Below, piece by piece: positions 24,753-64,000 of a stretch of 64,000 nucleotides of DNA (position 1 is the stretch's first letter; the number at the start of each line of letters is the position of its first letter). This DNA comes from Escherichia coli (GTDB lineage Bacteria; Pseudomonadota; Gammaproteobacteria; Enterobacterales; Enterobacteriaceae). The stretch is taken from NCBI RefSeq assembly GCF_003019035.1, contig NZ_CP027447.1; one strand, 5' to 3'. Below the pieces are notes generated by a model. The model searched no databases. It was not told the DNA's origin and saw only the letters and a program-made list of their open reading frames with translations. Position numbers and translations under genes: made by a program.

Positions 24753-25009
24753 TTTCCAACTCTTTATTTTTGGTAATAGCAGGTCCTCAATTTCTCGAAT
24801 GAGAAATCGATCGTGCCGGAAAAAAAGCAAAGTTACCCTGCTGATAAATTAATCAGAAGTTTGCTTTTTTCAGAATGCAGAAACCCTTATCAGTCCGGTG
24901 GCTGATAATACAAGGGTTAACAGAGAATGAGCACTGCGGAATACAGGCATATGCCTGTAATACAGAGAGTCAGGAAGACCTGTACGCTGAAGTGCCCTTA
25001 GTCGGTAGA

Positions 25010-62329: not shown

Positions 62330-62430
62330 ATATCTGTAATAAGAAATAGCCCTCGCCGCTTCCCTCTACAGGAATGGCGAAGGGCTGTCGGTTTCGACAT
62401 GGTTGGCCATCATATGATGGCCTTTTTTAT
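62330..62430 (+). ncRNA. sdhX: sdhX-type sRNA (RybD) in the sucD 3' UTR with shared terminator
   Basis: 3' UTR contains GCCCTCGCC...GGCGAAGGGC stem and terminal GGCCATCATATGATGGCC hairpin plus TTTTTT; position matches the known 3'UTR-derived sRNA. Confidence 0.5.
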
Positions 62431-63824
62431 GCCTTAAACGTTAACCACGGTCGAAATCTGACCGCAGGTTGAATTAATCCGGCTTCTTGTTGGGCTTCGA
62501 TAACCGGACCAATATCTTTATAAGCCGCTGGCGCTTCTTCAAGACGTCGTTCTTCGCGCAATGTGACGCATTGCCACGGCAGCGTTGACTCTTCAGTCGC
62601 GCTTGAGCGCATGGCCTGCCGACGCTGGCTGCGTCCTGCTCCGTGACTGCAAGACCACAGCCACTCCGGGTTGCCGCAACCAACCGCAAGCCACGAATAA
62701 TCACCCATGGAACCGGGGATTAACGCCAGATCGCCCGCGCGTGCCGGTGTTGCACCTTTGCGATGAATATTCATTTCATGCTCGTGAAGGATGATGTTAT
62801 GCGGCACATCCACCACCAGATGTGAATCATCCTGATGAAATAAATCGGCAAAACATACGCGAACCATTTCCGCAATGGTCACGCGATTTAACCATGCGTA
62901 ACGCGCCGCCATTCCCATCGCTTGTAGATATTCCTCCGCCAGTCCGCCTGCCAGGCCATATAACCCGCTTTGTGGATGTTTATGTCCGGTGGGCCATTCA
63001 GCACGGGCGCGATCCATCCAGCGTCTTCCGACGTAAAAGCCAACATCTCGCGATCCACTGTGGATCATCACCACAATATCGCCCGTTTTCAGCCCTTGTT
63101 GCCAGGCAACATGGCGATCAACCACGCTATCAACCACCTGAAGTTCAATAAAATGATTACCTGAACCCGGCGTACCAAGACAAGGATCGCGGAGTAATGG
63201 GCGGTCCGTTACCAGCAGGGCGGGTGGGGCATAACGCGAATGACTGTTATGCTCGTTAAGCCCAATGCAGCGGTCAATCTCTTGTACCATTCGGGGGATA
63301 TTCGTGCGTGTCCAGAGACCTGCTGATGGCAAGGCTGACATGCACTCTGCCGGTCCGTCATCAAAAAGCGCGGTGAACGCCTGTGCGGATAACGGAACAT
63401 CGCGCTCATTTTGCAGTAGCACTTGCGTTAACCGCTGAGCGATGACGTCTTTATTCGCTTCGGCTTGCTCAAGTGTTAATCCGGTCGTCAGCAGCCGCAT
63501 GCCACAAGAAATATCGGTGCCGATGGCCGCAGGAATGACTAAATCCGGCGTAGAGGCGACTACCGCGCCAACGGGGACGCCATTGCCGGGATGAAAATCT
63601 GGCGTCGCACAGGTCTGGCGTACGTAACCTGGATGGTCTGGTATCTTCACTTCTGCAAAATCAAGCAGTTGTGTCACTGCTTTTTCTTCCAGCGGCAGTT
63701 CGTCCGGCAGCAGTACGTGGGCACTGGCTCCTGATGGACGACATAATGAAACAATATTGTTGGCGCGGGAAAGTTGGATCCCTTTGCGCAGAAAGGCTTT
63801 ATCAAGCCTTGAAAGATGATGCAT
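62427..63824 (-). CDS. RtcB-family RNA ligase paralog, 465 aa, with N-terminal extension
   Basis: Family motifs seen in the translation: IPAAIGTDISCGM, GTPGSGNHFIE, IHSGSRDVG, IPGSMGDYS, CSHGAGR, AYKDI; longer than the 408-aa canonical enzyme as I recall it. Confidence 0.85.
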   Translation of the reverse strand: MHHLSRLDKAFLRKGIQLSRANNIVSLCRPSGASAHVLLPDELPLEEKAVTQLLDFAEVKIPDHPGYVRQTCATPDFHPGNGVPVGAVVASTPDLVIPAAIGTDISCGMRLLTTGLTLEQAEANKDVIAQRLTQVLLQNERDVPLSAQAFTALFDDGPAECMSALPSAGLWTRTNIPRMVQEIDRCIGLNEHNSHSRYAPPALLVTDRPLLRDPCLGTPGSGNHFIELQVVDSVVDRHVAWQQGLKTGDIVVMIHSGSRDVGFYVGRRWMDRARAEWPTGHKHPQSGLYGLAGGLAEEYLQAMGMAARYAWLNRVTIAEMVRVCFADLFHQDDSHLVVDVPHNIILHEHEMNIHRKGATPARAGDLALIPGSMGDYSWLAVGCGNPEWLWSCSHGAGRSQRRQAMRSSATEESTLPWQCVTLREERRLEEAPAAYKDIGPVIEAQQEAGLIQPAVRFRPWLTFKA

Positions 63825-64000
63825 AACGCTGTCCTGAAATATAGACGTTAAACAACCCCCTTTATTGCGAGGGTAATTTTGTCTTTCCGGTCAGCAGCCA
63901 GCAAAAGGGAAAGAAAACGCGCGTAGTGTATGCAGCAATGACGATCAATACAAGATAAAAAAGACTATTAACAAACGGGGGTGTTATAAAAGGGGTCAGT

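Follow-up and report, generated by a model that had tools for sequence, protein, structure and literature searches.

A 64,000-nt stretch of Escherichia coli DNA (contig NZ_CP027447.1; hereafter the window) carries, on its minus strand and convergent on sucD, a gene for a paralog of the RNA ligase RtcB. Our analyses indicate that the conserved companion of this paralog is its own cis-acting 5' leader, not a partner gene, and that this leader lies within the interval already delimited by an earlier, sequence-based reading of the window (the first-pass annotation). The gene itself is ordinary, its product being labeled 'RtcB family protein' in RefSeq. The leader appears to be a previously undescribed candidate cis-regulatory RNA that is not in Rfam; the principle that it would use, sequestration of the ribosome-binding site, is known. 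We assign a probability of about 0.65 to the reading that this is a stand-alone RtcB with no partner gene, controlled at the level of translation by a leader that sequesters the ribosome-binding site.

A conserved leader upstream of the rtcB paralog

The window is 100% identical to E. coli SCU-301. In a comparison of the spacer between the rtcB paralog and hutU of this strain with that of an 86%-identical relative, approximately 135 nt next to the RtcB start codon were about 90% identical while the rest of the spacer was not, and the leader was better conserved than the coding sequence (CDS). The leader motif was found in 85 of 87 upstream regions from 80 species genomes, with orthologs at 55 to 67% protein identity. 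From 5' to 3' it consists of a pyrimidine-rich strand, a GCUGCUG loop, a purine-rich strand complementary to the first strand (forming helix P1), a variable hairpin (H3) flanked by a helix H2, and a stretch complementary to GCUGCUG (see Table 1 for the E. coli coordinates). P1 lies 45 to 65 nt from the start codon in most lineages (54 to 62 nt in the large majority) and 73 to 119 nt from it in Comamonadaceae and related Burkholderiales, which have extra hairpins. In most of the 75 unique leaders, 0 to 5 nt separate the anti-GCUGCUG stretch from the start codon that follows it.

The two loci without the motif (L072 and L078) are a Peptococcaceae metagenome-assembled genome (MAG), which at 56% identity is the only locus not assigned to Proteobacteria, and Snodgrassella gandavensis, where the match begins at residue 18 and no start codon was found.

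The E. coli start region is paired in both the minimum free energy (MFE) and the centroid structures, and the equivalent region is paired in all 20 leaders that were folded. In E. coli the motif is duplicated as UGCUGGCUGCUG, whose pairing involves CAGCG and extends across the A and G of the AUG; a CC pairs with the GG of the AGGA Shine-Dalgarno (SD) sequence.

A sigma-70-like promoter could be recognized upstream of the leader, with a predicted transcription start near position 63918. A TAnAnT-type box is present 7 to 12 nt before P1 in nearly all lineages, often together with a TTTACA/TTGACA-type -35 element. In approximately half of 295 complete E. coli genomes, homology with the window ends at 63932, two bases upstream of the -10 box, which fits a functional unit beginning at the promoter. 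The first-pass annotation had seen no sigma-54 motif upstream of the gene, and indeed the conserved upstream block contains no GG-N10-GC element. Both a sigma-54 promoter and a LexA box in this block were rejected by eye, their spacing or sequence not being conserved.

The leader region had no annotation in the 295 complete E. coli genomes. Rfam 15 (4227 families) gave no match at the leader in any of eight loci, the E. coli one and seven others; these seven contained only unrelated matches away from the leader (a glycine riboswitch, tRNA and a weak RsmY). A literature search did not find the phrase 'rtcB motif' or any paper linking rtcB with riboswitch-candidate terms, and the available portions of two large Breaker-lab motif surveys and their supplements contained no rtcB entry.

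Two further ideas on the motif were considered and rejected. The anti-motif before the start codon (window 63827-63836 and equivalents) often reads CAGCAGC(C), for example CCAGCAGCC in Cupriavidus, and CAGCAGC is identical to a universally conserved sequence of the 16S rRNA 530 loop. A role for GCUGCUG as a 16S rRNA sensor was set aside as a probable coincidence, the complementarity rarely exceeding 7 to 8 nt (10 nt in one Xanthomonadaceae MAG). A pyrimidine-motif triple helix formed by two pyrimidine strands and the purine strand was rejected on strand polarity.

Folding and covariation of the leader

The same three-tier architecture was the MFE structure in all 20 lineage representatives, with z values from -1.8 to -6.9. 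In this fold, H0 is formed by GCUGCUG and the start region, H2 by the purine strand with its 3' extension and a downstream U-rich strand, and H3 is located at the tip. P1 and H2 are mutually exclusive since both use the same purine strand.

Covariation was examined using two methods. The first was a permutation test on 33 leader clusters (<80% similarity), in which the 5' strand of every cluster was re-fitted to a 3' strand taken from a different one. Cognate strands formed longer helices than non-cognate strands for P1 (6.48 versus 5.63 bp), H2 (7.64 versus 6.33 bp) and H3 (6.92 versus 4.68 bp), and for each of these helices 0 of 5000 permutations reached the cognate value. The second method used a composite alignment of 40 leaders, assembled from contiguous blocks of real sequence, with a single fitted anchor pair for each helix, and gap-free after MAFFT. 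The anchors were taken from the MFE folds; automated contiguous-duplex anchoring gave inconsistent results. Here 76.3% of cells were paired versus 56.5% in shuffled alignments, and the covariation score was 0.612 versus 0.246 (0 of 500 shuffles in both cases). When the partner was slid by 1 to 3 columns, the paired fraction was 39 to 53%. Two-sided changes were present at 7 of 7 P1 pairs, 12 of 12 H2 pairs and 8 of 8 H3 pairs. The pairing between GCUGCUG and the start region was register-specific, with 71% of cells paired versus 23 to 35% after sliding by 1 to 2 nt.

A covariance model seeded with the gamma-proteobacterial subset (R1) scored near relatives at 58 to 101 bits and distant leaders at approximately 16 to 24 bits; the E. 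coli copy was missed, and divergent members were poorly aligned. All matches at E <0.8 within the 819 kb searched were directly upstream of an RtcB gene, and the one match elsewhere, at window 24802-24888 (E=0.82), was due to chance.

Table 1. Features of the rtcB paralog, its leader and the adjoining sdhX region, in window coordinates
Feature	Position	Strand	Details and basis
Sigma-70-like promoter	63925..63953	minus	-35 TTGTAT (63948-63953), 17-nt spacer, -10 TACACT (63925-63930); from sequence
Structured 5' leader, ~94 nt, predicted 5' untranslated region (UTR)	63825..63918	minus	Conservation, common fold, covariation
P1 5' arm UCUUUCC	63908..63914	minus	Pairs with GGAAAGA 63882-63888
Invariant GCUGCUG, anti-ribosome-site strand, P1 loop	63892..63898	minus	Invariant alignment columns
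Shared purine strand GGAAAGA (P1 3' arm and H2 5' strand)	63882..63888	minus	P1 motif survey, MFE folds
H3 hairpin ACCCUC-GCAAUAAA-GGGGGU	63855..63874	minus	Terminal hairpin of the leader fold; sequence varies, structure kept
Translation start, predicted to be sequestered	63819..63836	minus	SD-like AGGA 63832-63835, anti-motif CAGCG 63827-63831, AUG 63822-63824
CDS of the stand-alone RtcB-family RNA ligase paralog	62427..63824	minus	Open reading frame (ORF), ATG start, 465 aa
sdhX small RNA (sRNA) / sucD 3' UTR and terminator	62330..62430	plus	K-12 annotation transferred, terminator scan, sequence

The paralog is a predicted RNA ligase of a distinct clade

The 465-aa RtcB-like ORF that the first-pass annotation had described was recovered at the same coordinates in the ORF list, and the Pfam RtcB model (PF01139) matches residues 63-464 with E=2e-95, covering model positions 7-425 of 426. 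Scores were below the curated cut-offs of both NCBIfam RtcB models, with 205.1 bits against a cut-off of 407 for the canonical RtcB model NF007153 (PRK09588), and 168.2 bits against 271.8 for the PrfH-linked TIGR03073 (release_rtcB). The protein is approximately 30% identical to E. coli RtcB in a BLASTP alignment with 18% gaps, and its best sequence matches in the PDB are the Thermus, Pyrococcus and human RtcB proteins (E 1e-42 to 1e-44). Full-length homologs at 58 to 67% identity are approximately 456 to 514 aa long (mostly 462 to 470), and among the candidates scored 2162 proteins matched at E up to 1e-20. A one-genome-per-species scan found relatives in 288 species, mostly Burkholderiales, Neisseriales, Orbales and Enterobacterales. 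The paralog belongs to a distinct clade of stand-alone RtcB proteins of roughly 460 to 470 aa, found mainly in beta- and gamma-proteobacteria.

The catalytic site is intact. In an alignment of 29 clade members, residues D104, C107, N223, H224, H255, R259, H342, H394, R398 and K464 were invariant, and the native C-terminus read ...TFKA. D104, C107, N223, H224, H255, H342 and H394 align with the P. horikoshii motifs DINCG, GSGNHF, HTGSR, HN and HGAGR, and the invariant residues coincide with metal-binding, GMP-binding and nucleophile positions of the Pyrococcus enzyme. The P. horikoshii equivalents of these seven residues are Asp95, Cys98, Asn202, His203, His234, His329 and His404. An AlphaFold2 model built from the clade alignment had a mean predicted local distance difference test score (pLDDT) of 86.3 and a predicted template modeling score (pTM) of 0.89. 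In a Foldseek search with this model the top 16 matches were all RtcB, at TM scores of 0.71 to 0.82 (0.79 to 0.82 to Pyrococcus and human RtcB). The paralog is therefore predicted, from sequence and model, to be a catalytically competent ligase that depends on GTP and Mn and seals RNA ends bearing a 3'-phosphate or 2',3'-cyclic phosphate to 5'-OH ends.

The first-pass annotation had also described an N-terminal extension relative to canonical RtcB. This is correct only in part: the N-terminus exceeds that of E. coli RtcB by approximately 23 residues and that of Pyrococcus RtcB by about 10, but internal insertions account for most of the extra length. The N-terminal segment is conserved across the clade, with R6, L7 and R13 invariant in the 29-member alignment.

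The sucD-cydA island in E. coli

The paralog is carried by 289 of 5426 complete E. coli genomes (coverage of at least 80%), approximately 5%, whereas K-12-type genomes match only the first 137 bases of the query, up to window 62436. A chimeric query of the paralog and K-12 rtcB matched two places in SCU-301 and in all 60 carriers listed. Since the paralog region alone is single-copy in SCU-301, this strain also has the canonical rtcB. The first-pass interpretation of the gene as an accessory paralog is thereby borne out: it is missing from this position in K-12, is convergent on sucD/sdhX and resides together with canonical rtcB, so that neither of the findings named beforehand as refuting it (presence at the K-12 position, or being the sole rtcB of the genome) was made.

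Beyond the paralog, SCU-301 has a 758-bp, largely AT-rich spacer followed by divergent hutU, a permease gene, hutD, hutI, hutG and a HAL-family lyase gene (hutH). Further along are genes for a LysR regulator, cobO, a class I fumarase, a dicarboxylate carrier, a DUF4387 protein, AtuA, methylaspartate ammonia-lyase and glutamate mutase, up to cydA. The island spans approximately 23 kb from sucD to cydA (L001 16526-31701, L002 29900-40001) and takes the place of mngR-mngA-mngB in K-12. In E. coli the paralog is thus part of a strain-variable sucD/sdhX-cydA island that also carries the hut genes and those of the methylaspartate pathway. A second stretch of conservation, TGACATCTTGCAATCTCATCATATTCATATG..., probably a hut promoter/operator, lies approximately 250 nt upstream of hutU in the AT-rich spacer, which is divergent elsewhere (L001 16985-17075 versus L011).

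At its other end the gene meets the sucD/sdhX terminator. That the TAA stop lies inside the terminator T-run, as the first-pass annotation had stated, was confirmed: the hairpin GGCCATCATATGATGGCC at 62405-62422 is followed by a T-run at 62423-62428, and the TAA, the reverse complement of 62427-62429, overlaps it. In the K-12 annotation, sdhX is the 101 nt after sucD and the 3' end of mngR is two bases further, in agreement with the first-pass annotation, which had mngR following sucD in K-12. Because K-12 sdhX maps to window 62330-62430, the stop codon of the paralog is within the sdhX U-tail. Homology with K-12 stops at 62436, at the K-12 mngR stop codon and within the last codons of the paralog (F-K-A-stop, window 62430-62436). 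The paralog and mngR, alternative convergent genes, therefore have approximately 7 to 10 nt in common after the sdhX terminator, which may mark the point of recombination or be what is left of the paralog in K-12. On the minus strand downstream of the paralog stop (62380-62426), the shared hairpin is preceded by an A-run and has no U-tract after it; transcription of the paralog may therefore run antisense into sdhX/sucD. Despite the K-12 annotation, sdhX (L001 15031-15131, corresponding to window 62330-62430) matched no family in a permissive Rfam search (E up to 1); either the SdhX model is absent from the Rfam copy used, or the model misses sdhX.

A model for translational control and its alternatives

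In the mechanism that we favor, transcription would begin at the sigma-70-type promoter, a few nucleotides before the pyrimidine-rich strand. In the thermodynamically favored OFF state, GCUGCUG would pair with the SD/start-codon region and the purine strand GGAAAG(AC) with the downstream U-rich strand (H2) around the variable hairpin H3; together these pairings would bury the ribosome-binding site. In the ON state, the 5' pyrimidine strand would capture the shared purine strand to form P1, GCUGCUG would be exposed in a loop and the start site would be freed. That these folds constitute a translational switch, and which way it regulates, is our inference. The predicted energies for E. coli are -29.2 kcal/mol for the whole leader (OFF) and -6.1 kcal/mol for P1 alone. 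Since OFF is far more stable in silico, some factor would have to favor P1 or disrupt H0. GCUGCUG is strictly invariant whereas its partner is variable and tolerates wobbles, which points to a specific reader of GCUGCUG.

Several observations weigh against this interpretation. In the permutation test H0 gave 6.45 cognate versus 6.27 non-cognate bp, with 231 of 5000 permutations reaching the cognate value, a weak result explained by one H0 strand, the invariant GCUGCUG, never varying. For the same reason H0 cannot show two-sided covariation, and such changes were found at just 2 of 9 H0 pairs in the composite alignment. The E. coli H0 is interrupted, with 5 contiguous bp, or about 11 bp with gaps. 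Anchoring one pair per helix biases the composite alignment toward structure, which is why it was used together with the re-fitted permutation test, the fairer of the two. MAFFT combined with RNAalifold on all 63 short leaders yielded no consensus structure because the stems are out of register, and subsets recovered only parts of it (H0 and H2 in the gamma-proteobacterial subset, fragments in the beta-proteobacterial one). With respect to the E. coli gene, strain O157:H7 TX 376-2 has only eroded fragments of the paralog between sucD and the LysR gene (L010 9127-9350), namely the last approximately 46 nt (window 62427-62474) and then a piece matching approximately 62640-62697. The hut genes are missing there as well, and this island probably once carried rtcB-hut and lost it through deletion. 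Moreover, 189 E. coli database sequences (cluster P0004) start at the internal codon V68 (MRQTCATPDF...), giving a 398-aa form that misses 67 conserved N-terminal residues, which points to a lesion further upstream or to a wrongly called start in these strains. In view of this erosion and of the internally starting sequences, selection on the gene in E. coli may be weak.

As to what would act on the leader, a factor working in trans could bind the GCUGCUG loop or the strand with GGA, be it an sRNA or an RNA-binding protein such as CsrA/RsmA, though we regard this as somewhat doubtful. The architecture resembles that of leaders activated by sRNAs, where the ribosome site is occluded by an upstream strand, as in rpoS, on which DsrA and RprA act by an anti-antisense route; no candidate sRNA was found for the present leader. 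CAGGAA or AGGA occurs near the purine strand and the SD sequence in many lineages, and proteomics in P. aeruginosa lists 'a homolog of RtcB', which may or may not be a member of this clade, as a post-transcriptional Gac/Rsm target (PMC11888443). However, GGA is missing from the Comamonas, Undibacterium and Achromobacter leaders, and core Gac/Rsm proteins are reported absent outside gamma-proteobacteria (PMC11888443), so a CsrA mechanism would not be universal.

The leader might instead sense RNA damage. An endoribonuclease, such as an MqsR-type toxin with specificity for GCU, would cut GCUGCUG, destroy the anti-ribosome-site strand and unmask translation; P1 would hold the ends together until newly made RtcB resealed them and restored repression. 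MqsR is specific for GCU, and RtcB substrates include broken anticodon loops, whose geometry is resembled by a GCUGCUG hairpin loop closed by a covarying stem. The conservation of GCUGCUG beyond what pairing needs, given a partner that varies and uses G-U wobbles, would also be accounted for, as would selection on both P1 and the competing H2. This proposal would provide a self-resetting, protein-free stand-in for the RtcR sensor, but it is entirely inferential: in the loci examined the gene was not accompanied by a toxin, and it is improbable that all lineages share one toxin family. We therefore consider it unlikely. A small ligand or kinetic folding as the signal for the switch is less likely.

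The incomplete distribution in E. coli (approximately 5% of complete genomes), the O157:H7 fragments and the 189 shortened sequences would also be expected if the E. coli gene had no current role and were decaying as a passenger of the hut/methylaspartate island. Against this, the ORF in the window is intact with every catalytic residue present, gene and leader are 98 to 100% conserved in the E. coli genomes listed, and the leader exceeds the CDS in conservation toward the nearest relative, which makes decay rather improbable here.

It is very unlikely that the conserved upstream block acts as DNA, whether as the operator of a transcription factor or as the promoter, and not as an RNA structure. 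The inverted repeats CTTTCC...GGAAAG do follow the -10 box directly, a common operator position, but the distance between them ranges from 8 to 19 nt, covariation is seen in three separate helices whose sequences differ between lineages, and conservation reaches the start codon and includes complementarity to the start region. In addition, no linked regulator gene was seen in the SCU-301 flank or in six other lineages.

Search for partner genes

RtcB genes are known in the arrangements rtcBA-rtcR and rsr-yrlBA-rtcBA. The first-pass annotation had expected partner genes of this kind beyond position 64000, as if the paralog were half of a two-gene module (RtcB-PrfH, RtcB-RtcA-RtcR or Rsr/Y RNA-RtcB) cut by the window edge, and had suggested inspection of the flank for prfH, rtcA, rtcR or other co-oriented genes. 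Many bacterial RtcB genes are so organized (PMC9304027). In the annotated SCU-301 flank, however, the AT-rich spacer is followed only by the divergent hut operon, and no prfH, rtcA, rtcR or rsr is present. An Rfam search (E up to 1) between sucD and hutU (L001 14900-17400) gave no RNA family and no Y RNA.

Neighbors were unrelated, and no adjacent prfH was seen, in six other lineages including Pseudomonas, Burkholderia, Variovorax and an enterobacterial-type contig. The ortholog is next to nuo genes and a methyltransferase gene in P. aeruginosa, a DMSO (dimethyl sulfoxide)-reductase-type operon and a DUF3788 gene in the enterobacterial-type contig, LysR regulators and transporters in Burkholderia, and a FIST-domain gene in Variovorax. 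The divergent hut genes are kept only in the 86%-identical relative. Since the orthologs in beta- and gamma-proteobacteria have no common neighbor, we regard the clade as stand-alone. Together with the score below the TIGR03073 cut-off, these results leave the two-gene module scarcely tenable, and for adjacent genes it is already refuted. A tandem glycine riboswitch was noted downstream of the Variovorax ortholog on the opposite strand (L026 6814-7036); it is unrelated to the leader finding.

Relation to known RtcB systems and leaders

Physiological substrates of RtcB ligases, most of which are bacterial, have been tentatively assigned only for sequence similarity network (SSN) clusters 1a, 1b and 2, where both E. 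coli types, canonical and PrfH-linked, are placed (PMC9304027). The paralog shares with canonical E. coli RtcB (RtcB1, encoded in the RtcR/sigma-54-controlled rtcBA) the Pfam family, the metal- and GMP-binding and nucleophile residues and the predicted chemistry, and both genes are present in this genome. It differs in having no adjacent rtcA or rtcR, and in having a sigma-70-like promoter and a structured leader instead of a sigma-54/CARF activator. The RtcB2-PrfH ribosome-repair module (PMC9304027, PMC9223846) is likewise an accessory RtcB paralog that accompanies RtcB1 in some E. coli strains. In contrast to RtcB2, the present paralog has no adjacent prfH and is 465 aa long, compared with the 356 positions of the TIGR03073 model, and the substrate specificity of RtcB2 (16S rRNA cut at A1493) is not transferable to it. 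The RtcB structures of Pyrococcus horikoshii, Thermus thermophilus and human are the best fold matches (TM 0.75 to 0.82) and are similar in overall length, including an N-terminal subdomain. Identity to these proteins is 21 to 26% in the Foldseek alignments, and the paralog differs from them in having no archease or tRNA-splicing context and in its clade-specific N-terminal motif.

With regard to the leader, rpoS-type leaders, riboswitch expression platforms and RNA thermometers also place an upstream strand on the SD sequence or start codon and have a competing hairpin for a shared strand. Unlike in those ribosome-site-sequestering leaders, the invariant element here is the 7-nt GCUGCUG and not a multi-helix ligand pocket, and in the sequence searched it is tied only to this RtcB clade.

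The result corrects the plausible but wrong expectation of a partner gene for every RtcB paralog. The leader could explain how stand-alone repair ligases are switched on. It provides a concrete and cheaply testable regulatory handle on an uncharacterized RtcB clade, and a route to both the inducing signal and the substrate of the enzyme.

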